64,000 bases of DNA from Podarcis pityusensis (lineage: Eukaryota). The notes beneath the pieces were generated by a model. It worked only from the letters and a program-made list of their open reading frames with translations, made no database searches and had not been told where the DNA came from. This document shows positions 7,849-57,268 of the stretch, piece by piece; the first letter of the stretch is position 1; each line of letters opens with the position of its first letter. The stretch lies in NCBI GenBank assembly GCA_964106645.2, contig OZ067045.1. One strand, given 5' to 3'. A program made the position numbers and the translations under genes.

Positions 7849-7958
7849 GGCTCCTTGATAGCCTGCGAATTCTTGCTCCAGAATGGAGCAGACGTTAACC
7901 AAAGAGATATTCGAGGGCGCGCACCTCTGCATCATGCTACGTATTTGGGCCACACTGG
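7849..7958 (+). CDS. ACAP3: ACAP3 internal exon (GSLIACEFLLQNGADVNQRDIRGRAPLHHATYLGHTG; ankyrin)
   Basis: atcag|GGC acceptor, GG|gtgagt donor. Confidence 0.95.
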
Positions 7959-10054: not shown

Positions 10055-10165
10055 CCAGGTCTGCTTGTTCCTAAAAAGAGGAGCCAACCAGCACGCGGTG
10101 GACGAGGATGGGCAGGACCCTCTGAGCATCGCGGTCCAGGCTGCTAATGCGGACATTGTTACCTT
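10055..10165 (+). CDS. ACAP3: ACAP3 internal exon (QVCLFLKRGANQHAVDEDGQDPLSIAVQAANADIVTL; ankyrin)
   Basis: ggcag|C acceptor, TT|gtaagt donor. Confidence 0.95.
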
Positions 10166-10941: not shown

Positions 10942-13187
10942 TTTTTTTTTTTAATTTCTTTTTATTGAGTTTCTCTTTAAAAAAACAAAACCAAAAGAAA
11001 AAAAACAAATCAACAAATCCAAAAGAAATATCCATACATAGCACAAAGATAACATCCATTACAGTTCTTTGTCTTCTTCCTTGAATCTTTATATCTTTAG
11101 ATATTTAAACCTTTTCTCTACACACCCATTGACATCCTTCCCTCCCGATTTCCGGCTTCTTAATAAAAATTCTTTCTTTTTTCTGCAGCTATTAATTGTT
11201 AATGGTTTACGCGTCGTAAGACTTATATCAAACCTGCTATAGTTTTTAAGTCTCTGTAGTTTCCTTCAATGTATACCATAAATTTATTCCAGCCACTAAT
11301 AAACTTTGTATTTTTTTGGTTTCTGATTTTTTTGTGTCATTTTTGCTAAATCAACATATTCATATAATTTTGTTTGCCAATCTCTGATCGTTGGGGTATT
11401 TGGGCTTTTCCAGTTTTGTGCAATTAATATTCTAGCGGCGGCTGTGGCATATTGGAATAATGTCTTATCTTCTTTTTTGATTTCATCCCCAATTATTCCT
11501 AGTAAGAAGGCCTCTGGTCTTTTAGGGAAGGTATATTTAAATATTTTTTTTAACTCATTATAAATAAGTTCCCAGAACTTCATTATTTCGCAGGTCCACC
11601 ACATATGGTAGAAATTGCCTTCTTTGATTTTACACTTCCAGCAAGCCTTATTTCCTGTTTTGTACATTTTCTCTAGTTTTGCCGGTGTGATGTACCACCT
11701 ATACATCATTTTTTCCAAATTTTCTCTGAGTAAGACACATGCCATGAATTTCATTCCACTAGTCCATAATTTCAACCACTTATCATATTCTATATTGTAT
11801 CCCAAGTCCATTGCCCATTTTGTCATGACCTCCTTTATTTCTTCATCTTTAGTGTCCCAATCTAATAATATGTTATACATTTTAGATAATAACTTGGATT
11901 TACCTTCAATTATTTCTATCTGGAATTTAGATTTTTTCTCGTTTATCCCTACTTTTTTGTCTTCCTTCCATACTGCGTTTATTTGATGAAATTGCAGCCA
12001 GCCTGTTAGTTTGTCTTTCAGCTCCTCATATGTTCTCAATTTCCATCCACTCTCTGATCTTATCAGTAGGTCTTCATATGTCAGTCTTTCTCCTTCCATA
12101 TTTGCTTTTTTGGTTGTTAAAATATCAATTGGGGATAACCACCAGGGTGTTTTCCATTCCAGAAGTTTTTTATTTTTCTCCCAAACTTCGTATAGTGGCC
12201 CTCTAATAATGTGGTTTGAAAAACCTTTATGTACCTTTTCTTTATTTAGCCACAAATAGGCATGCCAATCAAACCTGTTGTTGAAGCCTTCTAAGTCTAA
12301 CAGATTGGTGTCTTCCAAATTTATCCAATCTCTGATCCAGCAGAGGCAGGAGGCCTCAAAGTATAACTTCAGATTAGGTACCGAGAATCCCCCTCTTTTT
12401 TTCCGATCTGTAAGTAATTTGAATCTAATTCTCGGTCTTTTCCCTTGCCATATAAATTTCGAAAGAGTTTTTTGCCAATCTTTAAACACTGAGGAACCTC
12501 TGATCACTGGGATGTTTTGGAACAAAAATATCATTCTTGGGAGTATGTTCATTTTTATTGCTGCCATCCTTCCCGCCCACGAAAGTTTTACTCTGTTCCA
12601 CGTATCTAGATCTTTTTTAATCTCCTTCCATGTTGTGGAATAATTATCCTGAATTAGATTTATGTTTTTTGTGGTTAGCCAAATTCCCAAATATTTTATT
12701 TTTTTAGCCACCTTGATTCCATTCTGTATCTCCAGTTTTTCTCTTTCATCTTTTCCCAAATTTTTAGTCAACATTTTTGTCTTTAATTTGTTTAATTTAA
12801 AACCGGATAGTTTGCCATATTCTTCTAATAACTCCAAGGCCTTACTAACGCTTTTCTACGGTTCTTCTAGGGATAGCATCAGATCATCTGCGTATGCTTT
12901 TAGTTTGTATTCCTTCGTTCCAACTTTGATCCCTCGAATCTCTTATCTTGTTCGTTATTACCTCTAATGCCATAATGAATAAAAGCGGGGATAGAGGGCA
13001 TCCCTGTCTTGTTCCTTTTTCAATTTTGAATGAATTTGTTAGATTATTGTTTATAATCAGTTTAGCAGATTGGTTCGAATAAATCGATTTTATTCCTTCC
13101 ATAAATTCGCCCTCTAGCCCTGCTTTCTCCATACTTTTTAATAAGAACAGCCATGAGACATTGTCGAATGCCTTCTCTGCATCGATG
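10942..13187 (-). mobile_element. 5'-truncated L1 LINE (ORF2 RT to C-terminal zinc knuckle, 3' UTR, poly(A))
   Basis: DAEKAFD, RQGCPLSP and YADD RT motifs; CWKC...HMWWTC knuckle; poly(T) on + at 10941; TSD AAAAA(G/C)AATTCT at 10930-10941 and 13188-13199; frameshift near 12940 and a stop near 12858. Confidence 0.93.
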
Positions 13188-13246
13188 AAAAACAATTCTA
13201 AATATTGTTAAATTTGTCTGGGGCAAGTCTACCTTTACACACGATT

Positions 13247-13417
13247 TGTTCTAGTTACAGGTAGGTGGCCGTGTTGGTCTGCCGTAGTCAAAACAAAACA
13301 AAATAGATAAAATAAAATATATATTTTTTTAAAAATCCTTCCAGTAGCACCTTAGAGACCAACTAAGTTAGTTATTGGTATGAGCTTTCGTGTGCATGCA
13401 CACTTCTTCAGATACAC
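13247..13417 (-). mobile_element. Penelope-like element terminal fragment
   Basis: typical pseudo-LTR end carrying a minimal hammerhead motif; A/T-rich spacer. Confidence 0.65.
13378..13415 (-). ncRNA. Minimal type I hammerhead ribozyme motif
   Basis: minus strand GTAT-CTGAAGA-A-GTGTGC-AT-GCACAC-GAAA-GCTC-ATAC: intact CUGAnGA/GAAA/UH core with stems I and II. Confidence 0.7.
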
Positions 13418-13474
13418 ATGTGTTATTTTATATGGCTAAGCAGACTTTCCCTCCTCCTTCTCCTCCTCCTCCAG

Positions 13475-13622
13475 GCTGCGTCTGGCTCGAATGAACGAAG
13501 AGATGCGAGAAGCCGAGGGCCCGTTTGGTCATCCAGGTCAATATCCGAACAACAGCCCCACAGAGCTCCAGTACAGGAAGTGTATACAGGAGTTCATCAG
13601 CCTTAACATAGATGAGTGTTAG
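13475..13622 (+). CDS. ACAP3: ACAP3 proximal last coding exon (LRLARMNEEMREAEGPFGHPGQYPNNSPTELQYRKCIQEFISLNIDEC*)
   Basis: tccag|G acceptor; C-terminus resembles mammalian ACAP3 (SPTELQFRRCIQEFISL); TAG at 13620-13622; internal donor CAG|gtcaat after 13536. Confidence 0.92.
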
Positions 13623-14405
13623 TGACGACTCCCGCAACCCTGATGCCTCCTCTTCCTCCTCCTCCTCCTCCTCCTCTTTTGGGTCAAAATTTAAGGATGC
13701 TGACTGAGCCCAGGAAAGAAGGAAACAAAACAAAACTGTAGACGTGTCTTGTGGTGGGGGGAGGGGGGATGTTTGGCAACTGGGGGGCGGGGGGCTTGCT
13801 GGTGGAAGTTTTCCATTCCAAAAGCCCATGGGTGGGTTTGCCCCGATGGCCACGCAGAAGGAGGAAGAGAGATAGAGAGAGACACTGAGAGAGGGGATAC
13901 AGGCAAAGAACCCTTAAAATGAAATATATGTGTAAAATCTTCACCTCTGGTCCCAGAAATGGGGAGGGTTCTGGTTTTTAAGGTACGCAAACTTTGGGTG
14001 GATCAGGGCCAGAACACCCGTTCTGCCTTGCGGGCTTTGCAGGATCACGTCCACGCCACAGAGCACCTTTTAATGCACATTAAAAGCACGCAGCTTTTCC
14101 CTGAAGAACCCTGGGAACTGTAGCTTGTTTAAGGGTGCTATGGAGTGTAGCTCTTTGAGGGGTCAACTACAGTTCCCAAGATTCTATGGGGAGGAGCCCT
14201 GTGCTTAAAGTGCATGATGTGGGTCAGCCCTAAGAGCGCAAGAAGCGCCTCTCACCCACTTTTCCAACAGTTTGATTGCTGTTTTTAAACCCCCGTTGCC
14301 AGGAATTAAAAGCAAGGTTCGGAGGAGAGAGGCTTTTGCAGAGAGAAGAGGGAATTGTACATATAGGTGAAAAGGGAGCCGAGATTTGGGACTTGAAAGG
14401 GGCAT

Positions 14406-14408
<3 letters not shown>

Positions 14409-14456
<48 letters not shown>
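14409..14456. repeat. (CT)n microsatellite
   Basis: direct reading. Confidence 0.95.
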
Positions 14457-14460
<4 letters not shown>

Positions 14461-17400
14461 CTCTTGCTCTTCCCAGTGGCATTAGCCATCAACCTGTGAT
14501 GTATCTTTCAGATGGTTTGGAGTGCCGATCACACACACATATGAAAAGCTCAGCCAGTTGGTTTGGGCTGTAAACGCAAAATCCTGGCCCACTTAACGTA
14601 CAGAGCAGGTGTTGACGGGGGTTTGGTGGGGCGATCGGCAGGTCTGTTTGCTGTGCCCTTTTTGCATGTGCTACAGTTCTTTGGATTGAGAGGCATGGCT
14701 GCCCACCTTACATGCTCTCAGGTTAATGCCAGCAAAGGCTTCCTCTGGTTTTTGCTTTGTTTTGTTTTGAGGTGGTTTTTTTTTCCTGTCTGTGTATGGA
14801 ATATTTAACAGGGAGGTAAGCTTAGCTGGTCAAAGCCATAACTCAGCCGCTTCCAAGATGAGGACGCGATCCTTGAAGGGCGAAGGCAAATGTAACATAC
14901 ATGAGAAGAGCGTGTGGAAGCATCGTCGCCATGGGTTGTGTCCACTGTTAGCCTTACTCAGAGTAGATCTATTGGATTGAACAGGCACAACTAATTTAGG
15001 TCTATTAATTCCAGTGGGTCCACTCTGGCTAGGATTTAGTTGGATGCAACCTATGTTTGGTGCAATTTGTACCCTCATCTCTTTTTCAGGATCAAACTCT
15101 GGGGATGAGGCAGGGAGAATGCTGCCCCTTTCTGGCCAATAAAATAAAATAAAATTCAGTTGTGGGGTGGCATCAGTTGGCTACTATCTGCATCGTGAAT
15201 GAGACGCCTTCAGTCCTGGTCCAAAAGGCAGTTTTGTAACTGTTGTTGTTTTTTAAATGCCTCTTTATAGAGGATTGGCGGTGTGAATGAATAAATTAAG
15301 GGTGGCCAGTTGTTAGTCATACTGCAAAATGACTTTGGCCCAGTTCTCACTGCGGTTGTTAACTTGTGTCTGGGCTGTACCACTCCTGATGGTAGGTGGG
15401 GGCTCATGTAATGGAATTTTTCTCCATATCAAAACAAATGCCCTACACAAGGAAGACTAGCATGTCGGTGTGGTTTCTAGCCCAACTTTCTTCCTGATGT
15501 GCTAACTCTCTGTGTACAGGGTGACTATTGTTATTATTATTTTGTAAAGCGTGCCTCAATTTATTTATTTTAAATGGCCCACAAGGTGTGCAACCTTCCT
15601 GACGGTCATGGAGTAGAGAAAAAACAGACAGCTAACTTTGCACCCACTGTTGCGAATAGAGGAGTAACAACCCCCACCACGATTTCTCTTGAAATAGTAC
15701 ATCTGTCTTCACCTTTCGGATGTTACACCTGTCCTCACCTGTAGACTTGCCAAAAGTGGTGAGGCTTGGAAGAAGATGCTCATCGCCGGCGATGAGTTTT
15801 TGATTTTTGATTTTTTTTTAGGAAGACAAAAAAAACACACAGACACATACCCAGGGAGAATTGTAAAGTCACTCCTAGCTAGCCTTCTGAGGCAACAATT
15901 AACTGGAGCACATAAGGGGGTGGGTGGGTTTATATTCCTAAATCATGATGGATTTCCTACTTAACAATTCCAGAGAAAGAGGACTTCTCCTTTGCATGCT
16001 CGCCCTTACAAAGACTGTGATCCTTCCTCTCCCTGATGCATGTCCGCAGAGGGCTCAGCAATTCCAGATTTCTTGGATTCTGGGATACGGGGTGTTCGGG
16101 GTGGGGTGGGGCAGGGTGGGGTGTGGTGGGGAGGGTTAGGTTATTTATTATGCTTTTTTTCTGGAGCAGGACCTGTTCTTACTCTCCCGAGTAACCCTTG
16201 GGGTTGTTTTTTTTACGGTCTCTGTCAGGAGACAGACCGGGATTTTACTTTAGACTTAGGAGTAGGATAACTTTTCTTGACGATCATGTGTAAAATATGA
16301 AGCAGCGGCTGGCCCAGGCACTGCCTTGGGGCGGTAGGGGGAGTTGTCCTCCCCAAAGCGAAAGAATCCTACAATGTTCACAGTGTCATTACCTCCTGTT
16401 CAAGGGTTAGGTGGCTTGTGGATGAGCGAGCAAATTTTGCTGGTCGTCTCTCTCTCCACCCTCTCCACTGGTGATTCAGATACATCTCCCATCCCATCTC
16501 CTGCCTAGATTGCCCTTCTCCCTGCCAACCTCATATACACCTGCTTAAGGAGCTGAGGCAGATGATTTTTGCCTCTGCTAACACTTTCCCAATGATCTCC
16601 ACTGAGGTACCAGTCTCTTGGGGTGGTGCAAAAGGCTACAGATGCATGCAATTCTCACTCGAGAGTTTTGGGGAAGGTTTGGGGCAGGGGAGGCGAAAGT
16701 GTGAGCTTTAAGCCTGGAGTAAGGGGAGAGAAATTCGAATGGACTTTGTGCTGAAAGGCGACTCTACCTAAATTTGAACCGAAACACAGCCGTGCTTTGA
16801 AATTTGCACTTCTACAAATTTGGCATGGCAGTTTCCCACAGTGGAATTGCATGCAAGGAGAAAATCACTCTTAAAGGCTGGCGATTTTTCATTGGGGCTT
16901 TTAAAAAAACAGGGAGGGCAAGTATTTGTCCCCAGTTTTTCCACCAGGCCTGGCCATTCCAGAGATGTTCTGTTGCCTTCCAGTCACAAGGGCTGATGTT
17001 CAAACATCAAGCTTGCACCCAAATCCTCTCACACAAGCCATAAAGCCACAAGTGTTCCTGGTTGCCAATTGCTCTCTGCGGTTCTGTCCCCTACTGCCTA
17101 ACCTAGGAAGCTGCTTTGTACTGCATCAGACTGGCAAAGACTCTCTAGGGTTTCAGAAACGGCACCCTTTCACCTTAAATAATAATAAAAATAATTTATG
17201 CCCTGCCCATCTGAATGGGTTTCCCCAGCTGCTCTGGGCGGCCTCTAGCATAATAAAAACACAGCGTAACGTCAAATATTAAAAATTTCCCAATACAGGA
17301 CTGCCTTCGGATTTCTTTGGAAAGTTGTGCAGTTGTTTATCTGTTTGACATCTGATGGGAGGGCGTTCCACAGGGCAGGTGCCACTATCGAGAAGGCCCT

Positions 17401-20400
17401 GTGCCTGGTTCCCTGTAACTTCACTTCTCGCCCTTCACTCCTCCTTTACCTGCAGATGGCAGGGATTGAACCTGGGACCTCGTGCACACAAGGCAGATTC
17501 TCTGTGACTGAGCCACAGCCCTTCCCCTAGGACAGGGGAACATAGGAATAACATAGCTAGATGCATTGACGCTGAGCTGCAGCCCTTCCTCTCTGACAGC
17601 CATGTGACTCTTCCTGAAGCCCCACCCTCTTCCTCATGCCCCAGACCTCCGCACAACATTCCTGCTCAGGTCAGCCCCACGGTTCTCCTGCCTTTTGCCT
17701 CACCTTCTGTGACCTCAGGTCAGCCTGGGGGATGCAGTTAATCTGCTTAGCTGCCTCTCTCTGCCATGACGCAACCCCTGGTGACTGATGTGACGAAGAA
17801 CACATCAGATACTCTCTCTTTTTCTCTTTCCTTCTTTCTTCCCCCCACCCTCCTCCTCAAGCCAGCTCCCTCTGCTGAATCACACATCCCACAATATTGA
17901 CTCAGACGCTGTGCTTGCAATGCACTTCTCTGAGCAACCTCTGAGTAAAACCTATAGTAATGGGCACATGGGAATTAGGGAGCCCATTCTTCTCATTTTC
18001 TTACCCGTTCCTCCCCCAGTAGAAATGAGTCGTTCTCATTTCTGGCAGAAAGAGCTGTTCAACAGTGGAATTGGCTCCCTCGGAAGGTGGCCGACTCTCA
18101 TTCCTTGGAGGTTTGCAAACAGGAGTTGAGTGACCATCTGCCAGGGATTCTTTCAATACGATTCCTACGTTGCAGGGGCTGGACTAGATGACCTGTTGGG
18201 TCCCTTCCAGCTCTACATTTCTACAGTTCTATGATCCCCTCACTCCTCTTAAAGGAATAGCAAATCCCATCCTTCTCTCCTCTATCTTGGTAGAAGCAAG
18301 GAAGCCAACATGCCCTGAGCATTGTCAGCCAATCATTTTTGGATCCCATCTTTGCACTCAGAAATTCAAGTCTGCATACCTTGGGATTGAATAATAATAA
18401 TAATAATAATAATTATTTATACCCCGCCCTCCCTGGCAGGAGCCGGACTCAGGGTGGCAAACAACAGTAAAATTACAGTAAAAACATAATAGGAAAAAAA
18501 CAAACCAATTTAAAATACAGCTTAAAATGCAATTTTAAATGCAGCCTCATTTTAAAAGTAGCCCATAGATCAAAACCGTAAGGGGAGGGAAACATAAGGG
18601 TCAGTCTGAGTCCAAACCAAAGGCCAGGCCGAACAGCTCTTGAGTGAGTCATCCTGTTCTTATCGTCACCACAACTACCCTGCGAGGGAGGTTAAGCCAA
18701 GATAACGTACAGTCGGCCACAAAAGTTTCGCCCCTGAGCTTTATGGCTGGAGCAGGGGCCAAACCCAAAATTCACATTATACCACCCAACGGTGGTGACC
18801 ACCAACTTGGATGGCTGTAAAAGACAGATTTGTGGAGGGTATGGCTATCACTGGCTACTGGCTATAATGGCTATGTTGAACCTCCATTGTTGAAGACAGT
18901 ATACCTGCGCATAACGCCAGTTGCTGGAATCTTAGGTGCGGAAAGTATTGTTGCACTCAGATCTGGCTTGGTATCTGGTTGGCCACTGTGAGAACAGGAT
19001 ACTGGATTAGATGGGCCCCTGGCCTTCTTAGGTCTTTATCTACAACACTACCACACTGCCGCCCCCAACTATTAGATCAGAAACGAAAAGAACTCTGTGG
19101 ACATTACAGTAGTTCAAAAGAATTTGTCTAAGTCATCACTGCTTCTTGTGGGACCGAACCACATTGAAAGTCTCCCAGAAACATCTGTTCGTGTCAATTA
19201 ATTTCATGATTGCATGAGCTGCCCTAGGAAAGGTGTGTGTCAGCTATCGCCAGACCTTTTCAGACCTGCCTTTACGCCAAACATGCATTTGGGGAATCAT
19301 TTCTCATATAACCATATATTTGTATGGAGGTGGTACTTGTTGCAGCAACTTGGGACGGGAGCGAAATTCTATTTTGCTCGTGTTTGAAGCCAGTCCTACC
19401 TGATTCCCCCACTTTCCAAAACAATATGCAAACTGAAATGCAGCCATTGAAATCTGTGCTTTTGCAATGCAGTTCCCCAACCATGTAATGTGTACTCCCC
19501 CCATCCCAAAAATGCATATACAGTACTTAAGGGTGCTTAATAATGCAGATGTTAGTGATAACTTACCCCCCAAAAATGCATTCTGTTTGGGAAAATTGCT
19601 TTGCAAAAATGTGCATATTAGGCGAGGTGGTGTTTTATCTCTTTGGAATGCATTAGTATACCTACAATTTTTCACCCTGAAAAATTGCACACTGAAATAA
19701 TGATAGATTTTCATGAGGACCGTTTTCTTTCATTGCAAACTGATGTGGAAATGTGGAGAATGTGGCTGAAAGCTTGGGAAATGGAGAGAAACTGAAAGTG
19801 ACATATTCACCCTTCCTTAGCTGCAGAACACCGTGACCCCATGGAGGCTCCCCAACCCACCCATTGAAGATCAGTGGAGTACAGTTCCCCCCCTTCCCCT
19901 CTCCCTGCCACCAGCCCTCTAGGCCACTGTCATGTTTTTAAAATGTGGAAAGTGTACAGGGATGGTGCAGACAAGGAAGCCACGGTTTAAATCCTGAGGT
20001 AGTGGCGGTCGTAGGGGCTTGCAAAGGGGGTTGCATGTCTGACAAGGTGTTTTATCTATTTATGATGCATTAGTACCTACATTTAAGAGTCAATGTATAA
20101 AATCAGCTATGTGCACTTTTCCTACTTAGCAGTATTGGGTTCTTTTTTAAAAAAGAAAAGAAAAGATGTTAATGTTCTTTTTGTTATGGAATACTGTGCT
20201 GTCTTTTTAAAATGGGTGACATTGTTTAAGTATTTAATTTATTACTGAGGAAGCCCCCAAGGGCGTGTGCAATTACTTTCTCCCCCCTCCCCCCCCCACC
20301 TTCAGTACAGTTCGGCTGTATTTCAACGTCAGATTTTTCGTTTCTTTTGTACAGTTGCTAGGGAGTTGTTGTTTTTTTAAAAAAGAAAATCCAGCAAATT

Positions 20401-23400
20401 TGCCTCTCCACACCCCCTGCTCAGATCGCTTTCTTTGCTTTGTTTTTGGAAGCATCAGAAGCCTGATAGTTTTCGAACACATCTAAAGCAAGTTTCTGGG
20501 CTGGATCTGGACAAAGGTTGCAATCCTAGACCCGCTTGCCTGGGAGTAAGCTCCATTTAACATAGTGGGCCCTACTTCTGCCTAAGCATGCATAGGATTG
20601 CAGTTGTAAGTTAGTTGAACTTTGTTCTCATTGAAAGCAATGGGGCTTGAGTCATTACAGCTAAGTTGCCCCATTTGATTTCAGTGGCATCTGAGCTCAA
20701 CTCGTTTAGTCTGAATCCGGCCCTCTTATATGCTTTCATTAGGATGAAACATTGAACTTTCACAAATTTCTTCCATTGGTTGATGGGGATTCTGGAACAG
20801 CATGGACGGGATGTGTGTGTTTGGAACTGGAAGGGAGGGACGTTAGGGGAAAATGTACATAATTCCAGGTTACTTTGCAACAAAGAACTAGGTATAACAT
20901 TGCAAGGTTTGGCTTGTATGGCCTTTCCCTTCCAATATGGAAATATTTTTATTGTATTCTCTATAACCCTATTTGAAATGCACCAGATCTCCTTCTCTCC
21001 CCACTCTTTTAAAGTGTTGAATCGCACACTGGATTACAAAATCCAGTTGCAGCTGCAAAGTTGCCTTTGTGAAGAAAGCAGCACCCCTTCCCACTCAAAG
21101 CAAAACTCTCCTTCACAGCTGACTATTGTTCCCTGGGAGAGGGTGGAAATAAGGCAGAGAGGCAGAGAGTGCATCAGCACTGTAATATTGCATCAATTTA
21201 ATTCCTCTTTAATGGTCCTGGCTTCCTGCAAAGACTCCTGGGAAGTGAGTAGAGATGAGGGAGAAATTATGTTCAGCTCATGCTTGAATACGAAACCCCC
21301 CAATTCACACATACCGAAAGAATGGGCCAACCAGAACACAGCTATCCTTTGCGATTCACACTTCTCTGAATCTTGTGGTGCTGTTCTCCGACGAAAAAAT
21401 GTGAATATTAAGAGAAAGTGTGCTAAAAATGCAACAACGAAAATAAAATACAAAAATGCATTATATATTAGGAAAAATCACATACAAAAAGTGTGTCTGT
21501 CAGGAGAAATTTGCACTAAAATGCTGGCAAATTTTCGGGAGGGTTATTTTTAAAAAAATAGTAATGCAAAGCGAAGAGCAAACTGAATTTAAGATTGGGA
21601 AAATGAGAAAGAGAGAGAAGCCATCCATCCCTAGAAGCGAGCTTTAGGGGAAGATGCTAAGGTTTCTCCATTAGACGCCTTCTTCCTTTCCTTAGAGAAC
21701 TACAACTCCCAGGATTCTTTGCAGTCTGTCACGTGACTGTTATGGCATGCTGCACATTTCTATATGTTGTTTCCCCGGTGTCGGCATTTGCCACCTGGGT
21801 TCACTATTAGAGGGGCTGACTCATTGGGCAAATGAGACCAGTAGTTGATATTAAGGTGGAAGACAAGAATTGCAAACAAGGAGTGGGCAGGGAAAAGAGA
21901 CCAAAATGGAGCGTCGTTGCTGCCGTCCAAAGGCAAATTGGATTTCTGGTTAGCAGTTGCTTAGTTTGGCAGCTGCCAATGTACCCTCCAGATGTGGACT
22001 ACAACTCCCATCCTTGACCCCTACCCATGATCAGTGGGGGCTGGTGAGAGTGGTAGCCCACCACATCTAGATAAGTCCTTGCTGGCAAACACTCATGACA
22101 AACGCGTGTGGCTTGGCGTTCAGTGGATGGCGTGCAGAGGTGTTTGGAGTAGCTGGGGAAAAGGTGTATACTGTGAGCTGGGGAAAAGATTTGTGGAGCG
22201 TTGCGGGGAAAGGAGAAGCACAAATATTGGAAGAGAACGTAAAATACTGAGTGCTGCTTCCTTAGGAATGTGATGTACTGATGGGCCAGGAGAGCCCTTT
22301 TAGGGTATAAGAGGTCCACCGCAGCTCCCAGTGGAGTAACTCCAACTACTGTAACGTTCCGGCGAACGTTATTTTCCACTCGAAATATGTGTGTTTACCA
22401 CATGGGGGTGCTCTTTGACAACCACTAGCAATGGAAGAACTAGAAGGTTAGAAAGCTCAGAGCCACTGGCAAGGAAAGAACGTCAATTCCCCCTAGCACA
22501 GCCCAGAATGTTCACCTACACAATGCAAACTGCCAGTCATTGGAAGCTGCAAAGCTATAGGCATATCGCATATGCCCACAAGAATCCTGGGAACTGTAGT
22601 TTGTTAAGGATGCTGAGAGTTGTTAGGAGACACACACCCCTCCAGTGCAGACCCCCCCCCCATCTGTTGACCTTATATGACCCTGGTCTTTCTAGGACAC
22701 AGGGTGCTTCTGTGCAATGCTGGACCCCTCCTTCCTCCAGAAGAAACTTTTGTATTATAAAATTAGGACCCATATTCAAATCAAGACATCAGGGGCTTTG
22801 ATCACTCTCTATTTAAACAGCATTGGAGAAGGTTGACGTCGCTGTTGCTTTGCTGTGCCAGGTCTGAGCCGTGTGATCAGCAAAATCATGTGATGGCATC
22901 CATCTTGGATCTCACCATTTCAGAGATGCGGGTGGGGGAGGTGAGATCTGCAAAACCTTTCACTCTGTATTGCATTTGGAGAACTATGGCATGCGGGGGG
23001 CTGGGGGAGGCCACACTCTATCCTGTTTATTTATCTGTTCTTTGTGCATGGGAGAGGCTATATGGGGAACATTCAAAATGTTGTTCCCGCCCCACCCGCC
23101 CAGTCTTAAAGTGGTATAGTCCAGGAGGAACACTACCACATGGTTTTGCTGAGAACAGCTTGAAGTTGCTGGTTGAGGCTCTAATATCAACAGGAAATGA
23201 TGGGGGTAGGGGGAGAGGAAATAGTCATCTAGGACATGAAACACTCTGTAAATAACGTTCCAGCACATTAACCATTCCTCTTACCACTTCAACTTGCTTT
23301 TCAGTACAATCTTTGTAACACTGGCTTGTTTGTTTGTTTTTTAATTAAAAAAAAATTACCTCTTCCTGTTTTTTCTCACTTTTGCCTGCTCGGCCTCGAC

Positions 23401-23599
23401 TGAGTCTACCTATGGAAAAATCCAAACACTTCTGTATGTTATTTATCTTTGTATGGTTTTAACCAGGAAAGGGGAGAAAAAAACATCAACACACACACAC
23501 ACACACAACTGAGAATACCCCACAGAAATTCTGCTGCTCTGGTGTCTTATTGACCCCCTCTCCCCCCCCCTTCCTTCTCCCGTCTCTTGAAACACTGTT

Positions 23600-23605
23600 A
23601 ATAAA
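23600..23605 (+). terminator. Candidate distal poly(A) signal for the ACAP3 proximal last exon
   Basis: AATAAA followed by a U/GU-rich tract (23621-23680). Confidence 0.4.
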
Positions 23606-23766
23606 AATCTAGAGTAAAATCTTTTACCTCTTCTTCCTTCGCCTCTTGTTATTTATGTTGTCTTGCTTCTGTTTTCTATATTAACTCTATGAGCTTTGGG
23701 ACCCCCACCCCCTAAAAAATCTAGGGCAATATATTCACACACAAACATAACCCCTTGCTACTCTTT

Positions 23767-24111
23767 AAAGGGACCCCTGACCATTAGGTCCAGTCGTGGC
23801 CGACTCTGGGGTTGCAGCGTTCATCTCGCTTTATTGGCTGAGGGAGCCGGCGTACAGCTTCCAGGTCATGTGGCCAGCATGACTAAGCCGCTTCTGGTGA
23901 ACCAGAGCAGTGCACGGAAACGCCGTTTACCTTCCCGCTGGAGCAGTACCTATTTATCTACTTGCACTTTGAAGTACTTTCGAACTGCTAGGTTGGCAGG
24001 GGCAGGGACCAAACAATGGAAGCTCATCCCATCGCGGGGATTCGAACCGCCAACCTTCTGATCGGCAAGTCCTAGACTCTGTGGTTTAACCCACAGCGCC
24101 ACCCGCGTCCC
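23767..24111 (-). mobile_element. Sauria SINE
   Basis: same family; TSD ACTCTTTAA. Confidence 0.9.
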
Positions 24112-24496
24112 ACTCTTTAAGTGGATGCTACTCTTTAAGTGGGTGGTAAATTAGCCCCATTAGTGTTGAGTTCACGTCACCTGTCTCCCTCTCCTTGTTA
24201 ATTTAGGATGGTACATGGGGTCAACATAACAATCATAAGAACACAGAAAGCTGCCTTATACTGAATCAGATCATTGGTCTGCCTACACTGACTAGCAATG
24301 GCTCCTCAGGGTTTCAGGCAAGGAACAGTCCCGGCCCTGATTGAAGATGCCATTGGGAGTTGAACCTGGGTTCTTCTGCATGCGAAGCAAGATGCTGTAC
24401 CACTGAGCTACAGATTATCCCAACAGGATGGAGAACTGAGCTAAAACATAACGAAATGAGTTTCATTATGGATAAATGGGTTAAGTTCTGCATTTA

Positions 24497-24738
24497 AAAA
24501 GGTAAAGGGACCCCTGACCATTAGGTCTAGTCGTGACTGACTCTGGGGTTGTGGCGCTCATCTCGCTTTATTGGCCGAGGGAGCCAGCGTACAGCTTCCA
24601 GGTCATGTGGCCAGCATGACTAAGCCGCTTCTGGCGAACCAGAGCAGCGCATGGAAACACCGTTTACCTTCCCGCCAGAGCGGTACCTATTTATCTACTT
24701 GCACTTTGACGTGCTTTCGAACTACTAGGTTGGCAGGA
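24497..24738 (-). mobile_element. Sauria SINE, 5'-truncated
   Basis: same family; TSD AAGTTCTGCATTTA. Confidence 0.88.
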
Positions 24739-25138
24739 AGTTCTGCATTTAGGGAGGGGGGAAATCACATGCACAAATATAGGATGAACGATGCCTGGCT
24801 TAGCAGCAGGTCATGTGAAAATTAATTAAGCCAGGGACGGAGAACCAGTAGCCCTGCAAACATTGCTGGACTTGCCCCAGCCAGCATAGCCAAGAGTCAA
24901 GGGTGATGGGTGTTGTATTTCCACAACACCCAGAGGGCAATAGTTCCCCATCTGTTCTCTATATATTTTGGACTACAGCTCCCATCAACCCAGGTAGCAT
25001 AGCCAACGGTTAGCGGGGCTAGGAGAACACGTGGAAGGTCGCAGGTTCCTCATCCCATATCTAGTGGTTTTTAGTAGACCACACATTAGACTTCAGTCAC
25101 AATTGTTGACACTACTCCGCATCAACCAAAGTATAGAG

Positions 25139-25274
25139 CAGGCATAGGCAAACTCGGCCCTCCAGATGTTTTGGGACTACAACCCCCATCATCCCTGACC
25201 ACTGGTCCTGTTATCTAGGGATGATGGGAGTTGTAGTCCGAAAACATCTGGAGGGCCGAGTTTGCCTATGCCTG
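25139..25274. mobile_element. hAT-type palindromic MITE (many degenerate relatives in the window)
   Basis: near-perfect 136-bp fold-back; 8-bp TSD GTATAGAG. Confidence 0.88.
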
Positions 25275-27075
25275 GTATAGAGTTATAGCCAACTAAGTCC
25301 TATTCAGAGAAGATTAATGTCCATTCAAATTAATGGACTGAAGTCATGGACACTCATTTCAATGAGTCTTCTCTGAGGTGGGTAGCAACTAAGTGTTACT
25401 CAGAGTAGATCCACAGAAATTAATGAAGACAATAAATTACGTATATTAATTTCAGTGGGTCTTCTGTGAGTAAAACTTAATTGACTATCACCCACCATGT
25501 CCATATCATAAGAAGCAATTGAATCATCCTGTTTGGTCAGAATAAGATGTCCCCTTCTGGTCTTTTCAGTTTAAGGAGGCTATTGACAAGCTAAGAATGT
25601 GAGCAGGGCAACAAATAGTGACTGGGGCTGATGGGGTTTGTAGTCCCCAACATCGGCATTGGCTGCCCCATTCTACACTTGATCAGCAGCAGTTTATTGG
25701 AGTTTCAGGCAGAGGGCATTCCCAGCCCCACCAGGAGATGTCAGGGATTGAACCTGAGACTTCATGCAAAGCAGATGTGCTACCAATGAACTACTGCCCA
25801 TCCCTTGAGACTTGGGGTCATAGGAAGCTGCCTCATACTGTGAGTCAGACCACCACCCCATCTTGTTGAATGGCAGCAGCTCACCAGGGTTTCAGACACA
25901 GAACATTCACAGCCCTACCTGGAGATACAAGGGATCAAACTTGGGACTTTCTGCATGCAAAGCTGAGCTTCTGCACCTTCTGCCACTGAGCTACAGCTCC
26001 TTCTTATGTCATGTTGGCTCCCAATGTTCAGGTTTAGGAACCCAAATCATGTGTTCAGGGGCTTAGATCAGAGACTAGATTTGTTAGCTTGTGTCAACCT
26101 AGTGGCATAACAACTACAGTTCACTCCTCCTTCAGCAGTTCCATTAATTCTAACTCACTATGGAGTACAAGGGCTGTCCAAAATGTTTTTGGTTTTTTTT
26201 TAAATTTCTCTGCATTTTTCGTCCAAACCAAAGGACCTCAGGGTTGGCATTATTCTGTTGCTTTTGGAAGGGGGATACATAATCAAAACTTGGCTGTAAC
26301 TGTTTGATGGGGATGGGGAACCTGATTCATTTTGCATCTGAAGGTCAGCACACCGGATTTGCACTTTCGCAAACAATACGTGAACCAGAACACAACCAAC
26401 CTTCAAAATTTGCTTGTCTCTGAATTTTGCAATGTAGTTCTTCAGCCAAGTACTGTGTACACAAAGGCATACACTAAGGTAAAGTGTGCATTGAAAGAAA
26501 CCATATATAGTAGTAAAAACAGTTGATGAAAGTGCATCACATTAGAGAAAGCTGTTTTGCAAAAATGTGTATGTTTTGCAAAATTGCACACAAAAATATG
26601 TGTATTATGAGAAGTTCGCACAAAAATGCTTACAAATTTCCATGAAGACATTTTGTAACGAAACACCAATGACACACCAATGTAGAAATATGAATAACTG
26701 AACTTGGAAACATGAGACGCAGAGAGAAACCCAAAAGGATAGATTTGCCAATTCCTGCCAGTTGCTCTTGTTGGGCTGATACCCGCTGTCCACCAGAATT
26801 TTTGCACAGGTGTGCTTGAAAGTGGCAAGGGAAAATTATTGGCTACAGATAGCCATGTGTGCATGTATTATTTATTATCCAGTTGATGTCTTTGTAGGGT
26901 ACGATCAGGATACAAAGTGCTTTGCAGGGTAACAAGGCAGACTCTTGCATCACAGAGCTTACAGAGCTTACAGTTCTAGTTTTGGCAGAAGCAGAGTAAT
27001 GATGCTATAGGTACTCGTAATTACCAGGTTCAGAGCAAAACTTCAGTGCATTCATAATGCTTACTAGAATGCTGA

Positions 27076-27520
27076 ATCTGGCACAATTCTTCTCTGGCTC
27101 AGTTTGCATTCCTGAGAAATAGCATTTCAGGAGCCAGGGGCCCTGGGAAACATAATGTTCCCACGGCACCTGAGCCCATAGAAACTCAGATATTCAAGGG
27201 GGGGAACCACATGCCTCAGATTCTCTGGCAGCTGGGATATGAATATTGCAGTGATACCAACATCAGGGAGGGAGGGAGAGAAGCCTAATGACTGGCTTTG
27301 TAGAGGGTTACACATCTGATACAATTCTTCTCCAGCTTGGATTGCATTCCTGGGAAACAGCATTTCTGGAGCCAGGCGCCCTGGGAAATGTAATGGTCCC
27401 AAGACACCCGAGCCTATAGGAATTCAGATGTCTTGGGTCCTTGGGCATTTGGGATGTGAATATTCCAGAGCTTCCAGCTCCAGGGAGGAAGAGAGAGAAA
27501 TCTAAAGGCTGACACTTTAA
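27076..27520. repeat. Diverged tandem duplication, period about 238 bp
   Basis: ATCTG..ACAATTCTTCTC..TTGCATTCCTG.GAAA.AGCATTTC.GGAGCCAGG recurs at 27076 and 27314. Confidence 0.75.
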
Positions 27521-30085
27521 ACTTGGGTTATAAACCCACAGCACAGAAAATTGACCAGTTGGTAAATGTTGGCCTATAGTTTGGAGAGGAGCCTGGATGT
27601 GATCTGCTTCAACCAGGAGCTTCCAGTTCTCTGCACATTTGGGCTGGCTTTTTTACATCAATTTCTGTCGCCAGAAGATCTCCCTCCCTGTGTTCTTCCA
27701 AGCAGCTTCCTAGAAAAAAGGAGAGTGGGTCAAAGGCTGGCAGCTTGCTGAAAATAACACCCTGGAAGAATCTTTGAACAGTACATACCAAGTTTATCCA
27801 CTGGGTGATCAGTTGTGTGCTCAGTAGCCCTGAGAGAATCAGAACGTGAGGAAACACAACAAAACAAAACCCTCCATCATTTCCCAAGCTAAAGCCTCCA
27901 TTTTCTCCTGCTGCTTATTGAACGGCAGGAAGTTTTGGGAGGAAGGCAACTTTTGGCCGGAGAACAACACTGATAGGCTTGCCATACGTCCAGGAAAACC
28001 TGGCCATGGAGGCCGACATGCCCATCTGGGCAGATTTTTACATTTTAAAGGAAATGTCTGGGTTTAGGGGCGGGCTTGGGCTCAGGCTGCTCTGTACACC
28101 ATGGCCGCTGCCAGCCCGAGCTGGGAAAAGAGGCGCCTCTTTTCCCAGCTTGGGCTGGCTGCTTTTCAGGCTGCCCCCAAAGGGTACCCTAGCCTAGGCC
28201 AGAATCTCAGAAGATACTCTAAATCAGTGCACAGCTGGATCACATGTAGGATAACCACGCACAGTTCCTAATGCAGGTAGAGACTGCAGGGATCAGCTTT
28301 GGTTCAATTCAGATTTCAGGGCAAACCTACCTAACTCATACCACCCAACACGCAAGCCAGAACACAGCTGTCCTTTGAAATCTGCACTCTCCCCGAATTT
28401 TATACTCTAATTTTATTGGCTTCTTTTATCCCATTTATATCCCACACTTCTACCCCACTCCTCGGTTTATCCTCACAACAGCCCTATGAGGTAGGTCGGC
28501 CAAGATATAGTGATTGCTCCAAGGTCACTTGGTGGGACATCATGAAGATTTGAACCCTGATCTCCAGGGTTTTAGTCTGACACTCTAACCACTACACCAC
28601 ACAAGCAGAGGCCCCTGTCTGTCCACTAATGGAAATACTGGTATAGATGACCTTTGAGCTGATCCGGTGGTGTGTGGGCCGTGTACCTTACCGCACATGT
28701 GATGTGACAGCTCAATCATATACACCATCAAGGAGACCAAGGGGTGATCTGATCATCTGACCCAATTTACACTTTGCAGAGCAAAGCACAGCTATCCTTT
28801 GACGTTCCCAGATTCCCCTGGATTTTCTGCTGCAGTTTGGCAACCAAATGATGTGAACAAAAATATTTGGCAGGTGGAGGTGGGAATGTGCATGAAAATG
28901 CACACATTTGTGAAGATGAGATATGAAAACGAATCGTATTCGGGAAATCGGCTTGCAAAAATGCGTGCGTCAGGCAAAATTGCAAAAAAAAAAAAAGGGA
29001 ATAAAAGAAAAGAAGTCCTGGCCACAAGGGGAGCATAAAGCCATCAGGGCTCCAGATGAATCCCAAATGAATATATGATTTGTACCAAATTGACAGAGAG
29101 AGAGAGGAGAAAAAAAATTTGTCCTCTTAAGTGGTAGTAAAAAGAAAGGCACAGGGTCATATTCGTTTCCATTTCCCCCCTTTCATTCTAGAGCAAATGC
29201 ACACCCATAATTACCATTTAAATGTTCACTAAGCTTCTGGCCAGAAATACAGGAATGTCCTTAAGGGTGTACGTGCAGCAAGACAGATCCTGAAACTGAT
29301 TTCTTTTTTTCTTTCTTTCTTTGTCTGCATCCTGGTATATTCCATGCATTTATTTTTGCATTTATATAAGTATCATGTATGCACACACCCCCACAGACAA
29401 TGTACTGTCCTTTCCCCCCCTTTGTACCAGTAGTATCCTTTGTTTTTAATACAGGTGGCCACCATCTTGCACATGTCCAACTGATGTGTGACCGCCCATG
29501 TGTGGGTCCTTTTGGACCTGGAAGGGGGCAGAATGGGACAGGGCAGAACAGGGTATAACGGGTATGCATGCTCCACCGATGCAGATGGGGGCCAGGAATG
29601 GAGCCCCCCTGCAAAAAGTGCCACCTCGTAATTATTTGGAAATCTGCAGCCATCATATTTTCATTGTATCACTCCCTCTATTTCCAATGTTCAGCCCTGA
29701 GTGCCGTTGCTTACGTACCACCCACATACAAGGGTAAAGTATCAGTGCAATTGCAGGGACCCCTAAGTCAGGGGTGGGGGGCTGCTTTCCGCCTGTATAG
29801 GGAAGTTTTTTAACGTTCGATGTTTTATAATATGATGGAAGCCGCCCAGAATGGCAGGGTACGAATAATGAAATTATTATTATTAGCCACATTCCCCTCT
29901 GGGCAATCTTTCGAGGGCCACATGCCAGGGGTGGGAGGGGTCAGAGACAAAAATGGGTGGAGCAGCACAGCTAAAGGTTACCTCTGTACTTCAGACTTGT
30001 TGCTACACATACGGACACAACACTTTTTATTCTCCATTCAGGCAAGAAAGGGGCATTGTCTACACACACCAGCTGGACATCAATA

Positions 30086-30326
30086 CAGATGTACTGTACC
30101 TCGGAAGTCGAACGGAATCCGTTCCGGAAGTCTGTTCCAAAACGTTCAAGAACCAAGGCGCAACTTCCGATTGGCTGCAGGAAGCTCCTGCAGCCAGTCG
30201 GCAGCCACGGAAATCACATTGGACATTCGGGTTCCAAAGAATGTTCAAAAACTGGAACAATCGCTTCTGGTTCTTGGGAGCCAAAACGTTCGACTCCCAA
30301 GGCGTTTGAAAAGCAAGGTACGACTG
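30086..30326. mobile_element. Tc1/mariner-type MITE
   Basis: degenerate CAG..GTACCTCG / AGGTACGACTG termini; TA flanks. Confidence 0.65.
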
Positions 30327-31173
30327 TATTTGCAGTGTGAAGCAGGAACAGACAGCATTTGCTCTCTGTGCTGGACGTTCTCCAACCCAGCCCTAAGGAA
30401 AAGGTGGTTAACCTGTGGCCCTCCTGATGCTGCTGAAACTACAATGCCCGTTGACCGCAGACAGCAAGTTCAAGGAAGAGGGGAGTTTTAGTTCAACAAC
30501 ATCTGGAGGGCCGCAGCTTAGCTGCTCCTGCCCCAGGGGGAGGAGGAGTCCCCAAATACCTCAGTGAGCACCTAATGTTATTCAACAGTTGGAGGAAAAG
30601 CTGAAAACGGAATAGAATGGAGTATCCCAAAATGGGGATGGAATGGAGTATCCTGAAAGGGGCGTGGCTGGTGGCCTTGAGCCCTGAACAGGAACATTCT
30701 AATGTGCCACAACACTTTGTTCCCATTCTCACTTGTCGTGTAAAATGCTTGCCATTTTCTTTTCAAAAATGTAATGGAAGAAACGTTTCGGAAATTGTTG
30801 GGCCGATAAGCCTTTAGAGAAAGCACATTAAAGACACATGGCTTCCCTCAAAGGTTATTGGGAGCTGTAGTTTGAGGGAGCTGGGAATGGTATTTTTCTA
30901 GAAAAAGAGGTGCCAGAACTCGCCACGAACACCTCCCTCGTTCTCTTAGAATAGCAATGGCGCCCACCTGAGAGGAGCCAGAACTGAGTACCAGTCAGTT
31001 CCACCTGGATAAAACAAGCCCTGGTTCGCAGGATTCTTTGGAGGAAGCCATGTGCCTTAAGTGTGTGGAAGTCAGCACTGTCGGCATCTTTCCTTGTCTC
31101 CCTATTAACGCTGATTTCGCTGAAGAGAAAGGGTGGTCAGCTCATCCTTGGTGTCTATATCTGTCTTCTACAG

Positions 31174-31280
31174 GAGACGCCACCTATCTCGACATCTTCC
31201 GCGAGTTTTCTCACATGGCATCCAACAACCCGGAGAAACTCAACCGCCGCAGCCTGTACTTCAGCCACTCCTACAGATAG
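31174..31280 (+). CDS. ACAP3: ACAP3 distal alternative last exon ((G)DATYLDIFREFSHMASNNPEKLNRRSLYFSHSYR*)
   Basis: ttctacag|GA acceptor, phase 1 matching the internal donor at 13536; peptide resembles the ACAP1/ACAP2 C-terminal GDETYxDIFRDFSxMASxxPEKL motif. Confidence 0.82.
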
Positions 31281-32546
31281 TCCTCAAAACCACCACGGAC
31301 ATCATCTGAGAACTCTCGTTCCTTCCAACTCCAGAGGGAGAGTCGAGATTACGTGCCGTGGAAGAAGCCGGAGGGACAGAGGCGGCCAGTGGCTGAATCG
31401 GGTCCATCCAGAACGGGAGCAGTTCGACCCAGTGTCTCTGGTCACCCCACACAGCTTTGCGTTGATCGCTACATCTCCCCATGGTCACCACCCCACAACC
31501 AAATGGCTTTCCCCCTACATCCCCTTCCTCCCAAAAAACTTCTGAAGAGGATATACACAGCCCTATGAGTAACTAGCCCATGTTTACAGCCTGAAATGGA
31601 GAGAGAAACCTATTTCTTTTTAAAGCAGGGGTCGAGAACTTGTAGATATTTCGGACCTCGCTGGACTCGAGCTCCCATCAGACAATAAATAGTCCAGGAT
31701 GATGTGAACAATGTCTGAAAGGTCACAGCTTCCTCATCCGTGTTCTAAAATGGAAGTGGTGAATTTGCGGCCTTCACGTTATTGGTGGGTTGCAACTCCC
31801 GTCATCCCTGATCAACTGCTTGTGCTGAGGCTGATGGGAGTTGTAGTCCATCAACATCAGGCAGGCCATGGGTTGCTCTCCTATGTCCTGCTTCTGCCCC
31901 ACTGTTGCCCTGGAGGTTTGATCTCACTAGCCTCAGGTGACTTGGCAAACTGGTTTTTACAGCCTTGGAGCAGGATGGAAAGTATCAGTTTTGTTCAATG
32001 GGAAGATTAGATCGCTCCATAGCATCATTCCGGAGCATGGCGGAGAACTAAAAATGATGAGCAGGCTTCCTGGCTCACTACCAACTGCAGTCAATCCACC
32101 ACAGTCCCTCCCCCTCAATATATTTCATAAAATCACAGAATTATAGTGCTGGAAAGGACCCCATTCCCACTCCTGCCATTACTTGCCATTTTCCTTACCC
32201 TTTCTGTGATTTCCCTTGCCTTAAGGCCTAAAACAAGTTCCCTGTTCCTGATTTTAAAGCATGGCTTCTTCTTGTTGTTCTTTCAAAAATCATGTTCTGT
32301 TGTTTTCATAGATAACGGACTTGTCAGAGAGCCTGTACTGGTACAGCCTCTGCCGCCCAAACTGCCTCTTGTTGAGCGTGTATAGAAATTTGTGTTTATA
32401 TGCTGGAAATGTAATATATCTCTGGGCAAAAAAGAAACATATTTTTTAAAAATGCTTGTGGCGGGAGCGAAGGGGCATGAATTGCAAGGGAGGGAAGAGG
32501 GAAGTCCAGACAGGAGGGACGGACGGACCTTATTTACAAGATTATA

Positions 32547-32552
32547 AATAAA
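32547..32552 (+). terminator. Candidate poly(A) signal for the ACAP3 distal last exon
   Basis: AATAAA preceded by AU-rich UTR-like sequence; another at 31684-31689. Confidence 0.45.
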
Positions 32553-33433
32553 GACGGGTGACATTTTTCTCCCGGGACATTAGGCATGACTTCCTTGTCA
32601 GTTTCTCGGATCTAGACCTCTTTGAACCAGGTGAGAAAATTATGTCATGGACCTTGCTATAAAGTGATATTTATTGGGTACACGTTTATAGCTTTGGGGC
32701 CAGCTGCCAAATCAGATATAGTAGTTGGTTCCTGAGAAATGACAAAGTAGAGCCAAGGTATTTATATGCATAGAAAGAAATATGCACACAGTCTACAGTA
32801 GGATCAGGCGGTGACTTATCGGACCTCCAGTTAGCTGTGTCATTGCGGCTTTCTGGGAGGTAAAGAGGGAGGCATGAGGTCAGCATGGTGCAAACGCAAC
32901 ACCAACTGACCCTATCAGGTCCTCCCACTAGCGCAACTGCACCTCCGCAACATCGCACTCCAACATTGCAGTTACGACTGCACCGCTCCCCCCAAATAAT
33001 CAGCCATGACTCTGCTGCTCAGAGGTCAGGGGAACGTTGCTGCCCCACCGTGCTGTCTGCGCGGAACGCCCCAAGTTCAATCCCTGACATCTCCTGGTAG
33101 GGTTGGGAATGAAAAACCCTTTGAAAACAAAAACCCACCATACTCCACCACAATTGTTCGCTCCAAACCTCAACTCTCCACAGGCCTCCAATGTCATTGC
33201 AAAAGCTTCCGCACTTGCAAAGGCTCGTGGGATTTCTAGACACTATTTTTGCACCATTTTCGCCATTTGCGTACTCTTTTAGGGCCGTGTCCCTCGCTTT
33301 TCGTGCCACAGCCGGGTTCGCTGTGATGCGCGTGCGCACAGTTGCGAGTCCCTCGGACACATGTAAATGGGGAGCTGCCTGCACTCTGCTCCCAATTCCA
33401 CACAGGCAAACAACATGGAGATACCGATAGTAT

Positions 33434-53806: not shown

Positions 53807-54202
53807 TTAGCTGTTGAGGTGCATATCTACGCTATGCTCTTTCCGGCGCTTGAATCCATTCAGCACCACACTTGGGTAGAGCTCAGGCATCTGGTATGTG
53901 CTATATTTTGTGTCTTGGCATGGGGTGCCAGTGCCATCACTGGCGTAAGGTTTTGTCACATCCTGGGTGCTGGCCAGGCCTTCCTCCACATAGCGGTACT
54001 TCTCCAAAGTCAAGCTTATGCTCGGGATGTTGGGGGGTCGAGACACCTTATGCGTCCTCTTGGCCGTGAACTGACGGTAGAGGAAGATGAGAGACAAGAT
54101 GGCGGCATCCACGAGGAACTCCAGCAGCTCCACCACTGACAGCACCGATGACCCAAACCAGAGACTCCAGTTGCTTCCCATGTTGGACATCATCTGGGAT
54201 TC
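53807..54202 (-). CDS. SCNN1D: SCNN1D last coding exon (TM2 SNMGSNWSLWFGSSVLSVVE and cytoplasmic tail)
   Basis: cctag|GAA acceptor; ENaC pore helix; no PPPxY motif; convergent neighbourhood with ACAP3 matches the human SCNN1D-ACAP3 synteny. Confidence 0.92.
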   Translation of the reverse strand, partial: ESQMMSNMGSNWSLWFGSSVLSVVELLEFLVDAAILSLIFLYRQFTAKRTHKVSRPPNIPSISLTLEKYRYVEEGLASTQDVTKPYASDGTGTPCQDTKYSTYQMPELYPSVVLNGFKRRKEHSVDMHLNS

Positions 54203-54364
54203 CTAGGGAAAACATAGATTAGACATCTGATTAGACCAGAGGCGGGGAGTCCTTTGCAGAGTGAGGGCCACATAGCCTTCTGGGGAGCCGCATGCCAGTG
54301 GTGGGAGGACCAGAGGCATAAATGGGTGTAGCAACAAACGTCAGTTTTACTCTTTGTACAAGTA

Positions 54365-54595
54365 CAGTGGTACCTCGGGTTACATACGCTTCAGGTTACG
54401 TACGCTTCAGGTTACAGACTCCGCTAACCCAGAAATAGTACCTCGGGTTAAGAACATTGCTTCAGGATGAGAACAGAAATCGTGCAGCGGCAGCAGGAGG
54501 CCCCATTAGCCAAAGTGGTGCTTCAGGTTAAGAACTGTTTCAGGTTAAGTACGGACCTCCGGAACGAATTAAGTACTTAACCTGAGGTACCACTG
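54365..54595. mobile_element. Tc1/mariner-type MITE (same family as 3815-4056)
   Basis: TIRs and TA TSD. Confidence 0.85.
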
Positions 54596-57210: not shown

Positions 57211-57268
57211 CTTAGATTTGTTTGAGGGCCACTTTGCATATCCTGCTGAAAGTTTGTACCAAGTCTCT
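57211..57268 (-). CDS. SCNN1D: SCNN1D exon (ETWYKLSAGYAKWPSNKSK)
   Basis: 58 nt; ENaC YxLSxxxxxWPS motif. Confidence 0.92.

Follow-up and report, generated by a model that had tools for sequence, protein, structure and literature searches.

How does a single gene come to provide two different protein ends, and how long has it done so? ACAP3, a regulator of membrane traffic, raises this question in the lizard Podarcis pityusensis. The DNA considered here (henceforth referred to as 'the window') is a stretch of 64,000 nucleotides of contig OZ067045.1 (GenBank assembly GCA_964106645.2), in which the 3' half of ACAP3 lies on the + strand, as located by tblastn with the Lacerta and Podarcis ACAP3 proteins. 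The C-terminal ArfGAP-ankyrin exons in it are those of annotated ACAP3, according to tblastn and to an exon chain that is identical to the RefSeq ACAP3 C-terminus. The original prediction, made from the sequence alone, proposed that the last familiar exon of this gene is either read through to give one C-terminus (here tail P) or spliced from an internal donor to a remote exon to give another (tail D). We conclude, with a probability of about 0.85, that ACAP3 has a composite terminal exon with a switch between tails D and P, which is older than the duplication that gave rise to ACAP2 and ACAP3 and was later sorted among the paralogs.

Two ends of the ACAP3 transcript

The composite exon begins at position 13475, directly after an acceptor AG at 13473-13474 (Table 1). 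Splicing of its internal donor to the distal exon would give tail D, and leaving the donor unused would allow read-through into tail P, with the transcript then probably ending at a poly(A) site within the intron. The positions originally proposed are all correct, as is the phase 1 of the distal acceptor. The exon chain ending in D agrees with the C-terminus of RefSeq ACAP3 from Podarcis muralis (P0245) at 129 of 129 residues, and the read-through chain with that of a further squamate ACAP3 model (P0238) at 122 of 122. No Pfam family match was obtained for either tail, and tblastn with 13 proteins against 13620-31173 detected no ACAP-like coding remnant in the D-form intron at E<=0.01. The donor, originally described as weak, may be so: it agrees with CAG/GTAAGT at 7 of 9 positions, like the donors upstream (5-8 of 9), yet carries C at +3, where all eight upstream donors have a purine, and lacks the G found at +5 in seven of these eight.

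No sequencing run of P. pityusensis itself is recorded as RNA, nor is any listed holder of the distal exon. RNA evidence came from organism A, a close relative of P. pityusensis, for which four of 24 listed runs were examined over region 13400-15500. A contig of 958 bases (record 1, run X1) fits 13477-13537 with 0 differences and then continues as window positions 31175-31204, a sequence that occurs once in the window; the predicted junction 13536 to 31174 is thus carried by an assembled RNA of the relative. The sequence past the donor is also transcribed. Stranded raw reads of runs X23 and X24 cover 13542-13683 on the gene strand (mean depth 0.7-4.4) together with much of the region downstream, and X1 contigs lie over the proximal 3' untranslated region (UTR) at a depth of ~13-20, compared with 23.9 for the spliced contig. 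Among the loose ends listed for the raw reads (threshold 3 reads), none was found at the donor. The fraction of sequence words of 31174-32570 held by the RNA-like runs of organism A was 0.38-0.49, and 0.43-0.44 in its other runs, RNA origin being shown for X1 only, through its splice junction. Two short repeat-derived pieces of the proximal UTR, at 14104-14190 and 14990-15026, draw reads from elsewhere in the genome and raise the local depth. A pile of single-cell reads starting at 14625 was not counted as a poly(A) site because of its adaptor-like loose ends, which we take to be a template-switch tag.

We considered whether the tail is decided mainly by competition of the donors at 13536 and 13617 for the distal exon, and not by intronic polyadenylation; the second junction would then place a stop one residue early in the lizard and would join P and D in tandem in frogs. 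Splicing of this second donor to 31174 yields a chain that agrees with the C-terminus of an IDE-ending Podarcis model (P0239) at 121 of 121 residues, four frogs including Xenopus laevis have models with P and D in tandem (P0097, P0105, P0106, P0301, P0302, P0304, P0305), and no proximal cleavage site was seen in the runs. However, reads and contigs cover the UTR past 13617, no loose end is among those listed at that position, the second donor follows the consensus at only 5 of 9 positions, and its GT is absent both from the ACAP2 gene of this genome and from L010, a locus taken from a metagenome scan (at least one locus from 594 pattern matches). The IDE ending could equally be a species-specific stop mutation. 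This arrangement is therefore improbable, and we retain the switch between splicing to D and read-through into P.

Table 1. Features of the two ACAP3 ends in the window, and the corresponding read-through tail of ACAP2.
Feature	Position	Strand	Basis
ACAP3 ankyrin-repeat exon, in both forms	7849..7958	+	tblastn with RefSeq ACAP3; AG/GT ends, open chain
ACAP3 ankyrin-repeat exon, next one upstream of the composite exon, in both forms	10055..10165	+	tblastn; exon chain
Composite exon, shared 5' part (LRLARMNEEMRE helix and Gly/Pro linker)	13475..13536	+	exon chain; X1 contig on 13477-13537, 0 differences
Internal donor 1, CAG/gtcaat (CCAG/gtcaat), GT at 13537, doubling as Gly-Gln-Tyr codons of tail P	13537..13542	+	used in the relative's contig
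Read-through tail P, 27 codons and stop, ending ...SLNIDEC	13537..13622, stop 13620-13622	+	protein matches; stranded reads over 13542-13683
Candidate second donor AGT/gttagt, overlapping the final Cys codon and stop (GT at 13618)	13618..13623	+	chain match to P0239
D-form intron, 17,637 bases	13537..31173	+	donor and acceptor coordinates
Proximal 3' UTR of the read-through form, part examined; AATAAA at 15138, 15148, 15290	13623..15500	+	read and contig coverage
Coding part of the distal terminal exon (tail D with 34 codons and stop, ...FSHSYR-stop)	31174..31280	+	phase-1 acceptor AG 31172-31173; protein and paralog matches
Likely distal 3' UTR; AATAAA at 31684, 32547	31281..32570	+	sequence
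ACAP2 read-through tail P behind the shared donor type	G000:C5:382813-382950 (L009:1501-1644; L004)		match to ACAP3 proximal exon

Likely age and proposed sorting of the switch

Both ACAP3 tails are already present in RefSeq/UniRef as predicted isoforms, from chimaera and sharks to marsupials. The distal exon gave 114 protein matches at E<=0.001, 113 of them with tail D, and since in 106 of the 114 the GP[FLY]G[QH][PA]G-type motif of the shared exon stands directly before D, the match is not a chance one. By name, the holders of D are chimaera, sharks, rays, bichir, sturgeon, gar, teleosts, coelacanth, amphibians, reptiles, birds and marsupials. For the proximal tail there were 529 protein matches at E<=0.001, and the P end was present in 120 of the 120 matches listed; the ACAP3-type P tail occurs in sharks and chimaera. 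Both tails are annotated within one species or genus in Callorhinchus, Lepisosteus, Xenopus tropicalis, Anolis, Laticauda, Alligator, Dromaius and Sarcophilus, and proteins known from run assemblies alone carry D (P0021, P0022, P0075) or P (P0120, P0310, P0315, P0318). Together with the junction in the relative, the reads past the donor and the two complete chain matches, these results uphold the proposal that ACAP3 has two usable C-termini.

Several models depart from this pattern. In gar, additional sequence after the donor and before the D exon puts the latter into another frame and creates a third, gar-specific ending (P0275-P0277, P0279, P0282, P0283, P0286). Sturgeon, paddlefish and chimaera have a longer tail D, and frogs a longer ACAP2 tail P (P0018, P0020-P0022, P0031, P0381-P0383), and three ACAP3-like fish models with degenerate or frameshifted tails (P0491, P0499, P0550) are possibly decaying duplicates.

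Placental ACAP3 probably has P only, as judged from the one protein retrieved (Tamandua, P0461), which ends in P and carries Ala in place of the donor-bearing Gly codon. No placental D tail was among the distal-exon matches, a weak negative because the same search returned no protein named ACAP1 or ACAP2 either.

The paralogs indicate where the switch came from. At least three D-type exons exist in this genome, one each as the last exon of ACAP3, ACAP2 and ACAP1 and all behind the same phase-1 acceptor, and the ACAP3 exon is 83% identical to that of ACAP2 and 70% identical to that of ACAP1, which bears out the view of the distal exon as a terminus shared among the paralogs. The second genomic match of the proximal exon is the penultimate exon of ACAP2 (78% identical over 47 residues). 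ACAP2 of this genome has a CAG/gtcaa donor, common to the window ACAP3, ACAP2 and L010, followed by a homologous read-through tail P and, ~2.8 kb downstream, by the D exon; its intron has an AATAAA ~0.3 kb upstream of the D acceptor. The read-through tail had been presented as mammal-like and particular to ACAP3, which does not hold given this ACAP2 tail behind the same donor and the ACAP3 tail of sharks and chimaera. Lizard ACAP1 has D only, with a near-consensus donor (CAG/gtgagt) after which no P-like read-through was found. A tree of 22 proteins built without the tails (midpoint root, no ACAP1 row, Podarcis protein P0245 in place of the window ACAP3) separated ACAP3 and ACAP2 into clades with support of 100/100 each, within which D and P forms pair by lineage.

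The ACAP2 tail P gave 546 protein matches, many of the 120 listed being ACAP3. One ACAP2 P sequence is identical to the letter in 35 fetched proteins, including those of macaque, gibbon, vole, otter, whale and crocodile, and the bichir version differs from it by one residue. In squirrel, two of 11 ACAP2 RefSeq isoforms have P and nine have D, and long multi-exon proteins with tail P are also known from run assemblies alone (P0338, P0350-P0352, P0359).

Because ACAP2 has a homologous P tail behind the same donor, and because ACAP3 P is found in sharks and chimaera, the two-tail switch likely predates the ACAP2/ACAP3 duplication and is likely about as old as jawed vertebrates. Tail D is probably the older tail, since all three paralogs have it. 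A search for a jawless or invertebrate ACAP outgroup with an ankyrin and tail query retrieved none (eight ACAP-like rows among 150, in a list dominated by long ankyrin proteins), and the ESM Atlas gave no usable match for such an outgroup.

An opposite order of events, already put forward in part by the original prediction, would have P arise in ACAP3 by intron read-through after the paralogs had split, with the ACAP2 tail a product of gene conversion or convergence. The absence of P from lizard ACAP1 and the presence of D in all three paralogs do point to P as the younger tail. However, ACAP2 and ACAP3 lie on different contigs, and paralog-specific P residues were already fixed in bichir or sturgeon for ACAP2 and in sharks for ACAP3. 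Moreover, P has diverged between the paralogs as much as the rest: 10 codons identical, seven synonymous and five residue-changing of 22 in P, compared with 10, seven and four of 21 in the shared coding part and 10, 10 and four of 24 in D. We consider this order very improbable, and the explanation that the switch arose before the duplication, with ACAP1 of the lizard keeping D only, ACAP2 keeping both tails, and ACAP3 keeping both from sharks to marsupials and probably losing D in placentals, stays the preferred one.

Several observations weigh against this reading. The RNA data are from a related organism, the junction is represented by one contig of one run, and pre-mRNA still to be spliced may account for part of the shallow read coverage past the donor. 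The runs examined showed no accumulation of 3' ends in 13400-15500, and one contig runs ~520 bases past 15500, beyond all three proximal AATAAA. Isoforms from other species are mostly predicted models, the placental loss of D depends on one protein and an insensitive search, and the 120 matches listed, of 546, include no ACAP2 P form labelled as human. The low depth and the predicted status of the models would also suit the view that one tail is without function, P being noise from an unspliced intron or the distal exon a stranded pseudo-exon or a part of another gene. Yet both tails are near-invariant across jawed vertebrates with mostly synonymous changes, the junction is present in a contig, no other ACAP exon was detected by tblastn in the D-form intron, and the D-type exons detected (at least three) number one per paralog, so that we give this view hardly any credence.

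The tails at the end of the ankyrin repeats

We next considered what an exchange of tails might do to the protein. In the structure of Rab35 with ACAP2 (PDB 6IF3) the construct ends in tail D, and chain 6IF3_A is resolved to at least residue 761; the structure paper reportedly names the terminal ankyrin repeat and an extended C-terminal helix. The constructs of the ACAP1 C-portion structures (3JUE, 4F1P, 3T9K) likewise end in D. No solved structure has tail P, the sole PDB match of the proximal exon being to its 22 shared residues. Lizard ACAP3 shares tail D with these constructs and has an ankyrin region highly similar to that of ACAP2; its binding to Rab35 is a prediction.

A model of the ankyrins with P had a mean predicted local distance difference test (pLDDT) of 81.9 and a tail helix at 180-199, and residues 32-196 of this model align to 605-761 of 6IF3_A (Z 22.9, root mean square deviation 2.7, 150 aligned). 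Both tails are predicted to be a single helix that follows the last ankyrin repeat, in roughly the same place. The alignment reaches residue 721 of an ACAP1 fused to an integrin peptide and stops at 697-701 in two peptide-free ACAP1 entries; as it covers the tail in the former and ends before it in the latter, the comparison suggests that the C-terminal tail becomes ordered when a partner is bound. The original prediction had noted a Y...[IF]-x-E-F pattern in both tails, and the end point of the P-model alignment to the ACAP2 crystal agrees with it in that, if ungapped, it brings the Tyr and Phe of P and D into register; the tail sequences themselves are not detectably homologous. The related idea of interchangeable modules is accordingly reduced to a predicted helix in each.

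Some results count against this picture of the tails. The confidence of the P helix is moderate (pLDDT 61-78), the Foldseek alignment to 6IF3 spans only 135 columns, the AlphaFold model of tail D is unusable in the tail (pLDDT ~30-47), and the similarity of P and D is not significant, its score being reached in 413 of 5000 and 52 of 500 shuffles, with little power for such short tails.

ACAP2 is described as binding Rab35 through three parallel helices (PMC9308819), and two ankyrin asparagines, N610 and N691, as required for this binding (PMC6358971). Assuming a +8 offset, which we infer, both positions are Asn in the 778-residue ACAP2 and in Podarcis ACAP3 (P0245), whereas at the second one marsupial and one placental ACAP3 (P0110, P0461) have Asp. 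Because D is ordered in partner-bound ACAP structures, a swap of D for P might alter partner binding at the ankyrin end, with Rab35 as the best candidate; we hold this possible, at somewhat less than even odds. A wider scheme is more tentative still. In it, a vertebrate-wide tail switch of ACAP2 and ACAP3 would turn the Rab35 coupling of Arf6 GTPase-activating proteins on and off, the unstudied mammalian ACAP2 P would be uncoupled from Rab35 or bind another partner, and non-mammalian ACAP3 with tail D would be a second Rab35 effector. Placental ACAP3 would have become P-only through loss of the donor and the distal exon, and the three paralogs would have divided an ancestral pair of isoforms.

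Gene neighbourhood, known switches and significance

Around the two ACAP3 ends, the window contains minus-strand exons of an amiloride-sensitive sodium channel (PF00858) at ~54 and ~59 kb. The gene, at ~53800-59100, is convergent with ACAP3 and lies ~21 kb past the likely end of the distal exon. In rodents SCNN1D is flanked by ACAP3 (PMC8662647), and the neighbour of lizard ACAP3 is likely SCNN1D too. The intron just upstream of the composite exon holds the remnant of a retroelement of the long interspersed nuclear element type on the minus strand (11296-13207), with a PF00078 reverse transcriptase match and an open frame of 519 codons.

Composite terminal exons with intronic polyadenylation are known from the secreted and membrane forms of immunoglobulin mu, from lamin A/C and from FLT1/sFlt1. 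As in these genes, splicing at an internal donor of ACAP is in competition with reading on into the intron, where an in-frame tail is encoded, and two C-termini result. Unlike them, the ACAP switch has two short, predicted helical tails of similar length instead of a membrane anchor or none, and it is kept in two paralogs. Its intronic cleavage, for which ACAP3 has three candidate AATAAA, is presumed, and the choice of tail may be regulated through competition of splicing and polyadenylation, as originally proposed. KRAS 4A/4B and CDC42 use duplicated or separate alternative last exons, and they resemble ACAP3 in having two conserved alternative C-termini in a gene of a small-GTPase pathway. 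In contrast to both, tail P follows on from the shared exon without a separate acceptor, and the homology expected for KRAS-type duplicated exons was not significant between P and D (the tails being short, with little power for the comparison). In its layout the ACAP3 end belongs with the composite terminal exons of immunoglobulin mu or lamin A/C and not with duplicated-exon pairs.

The mechanism is thus of a known and ordinary kind, and both forms are already in databases: predicted ACAP3 and ACAP2 isoforms in RefSeq/UniRef (XP_028596665.1, XP_033012201.1, XP_069040153.1 versus XP_069040155.1, XP_047419490.1 versus XP_047419483.1) have exactly the same tails and junction, although, unlike the present account, these entries are automatic models only. 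We found no literature description of the ACAP tail switch, its age or its function, and no paper that joins ACAP2 with an alternative last exon or with intronic polyadenylation, in a search that did not extend to most subscription papers or to any supplement; these, genome-wide poly(A) tables among them, may list the forms. Passages on ACAP3 in three papers (PMC11616996, on intron 19 retention, PMC3025006 and PMC12425497) have no bearing on the terminal exon. What is new here is the common origin proposed for the switch of ACAP2 and ACAP3, and the near-invariance of the ACAP2 tail P from bichir to primates.

For the biology of the family this has three consequences. First, since the ACAP1 and ACAP2 crystals all contain tail D and work on mammalian ACAP3 has most likely been done with tail P, some of what has been ascribed to the paralogs may stem from their tails instead. 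Second, a near-unchanged tail on a non-canonical ACAP2 isoform, from bichir to primates, points to an unknown binding partner or to autoregulation at the hand-over from Rab35 to Arf6, which acts in neurite outgrowth, phagocytosis and myelination (PMC6358971, PMC11691468). Third, ACAP2 and ACAP3 offer a clean case of isoform sorting among whole-genome duplicates.

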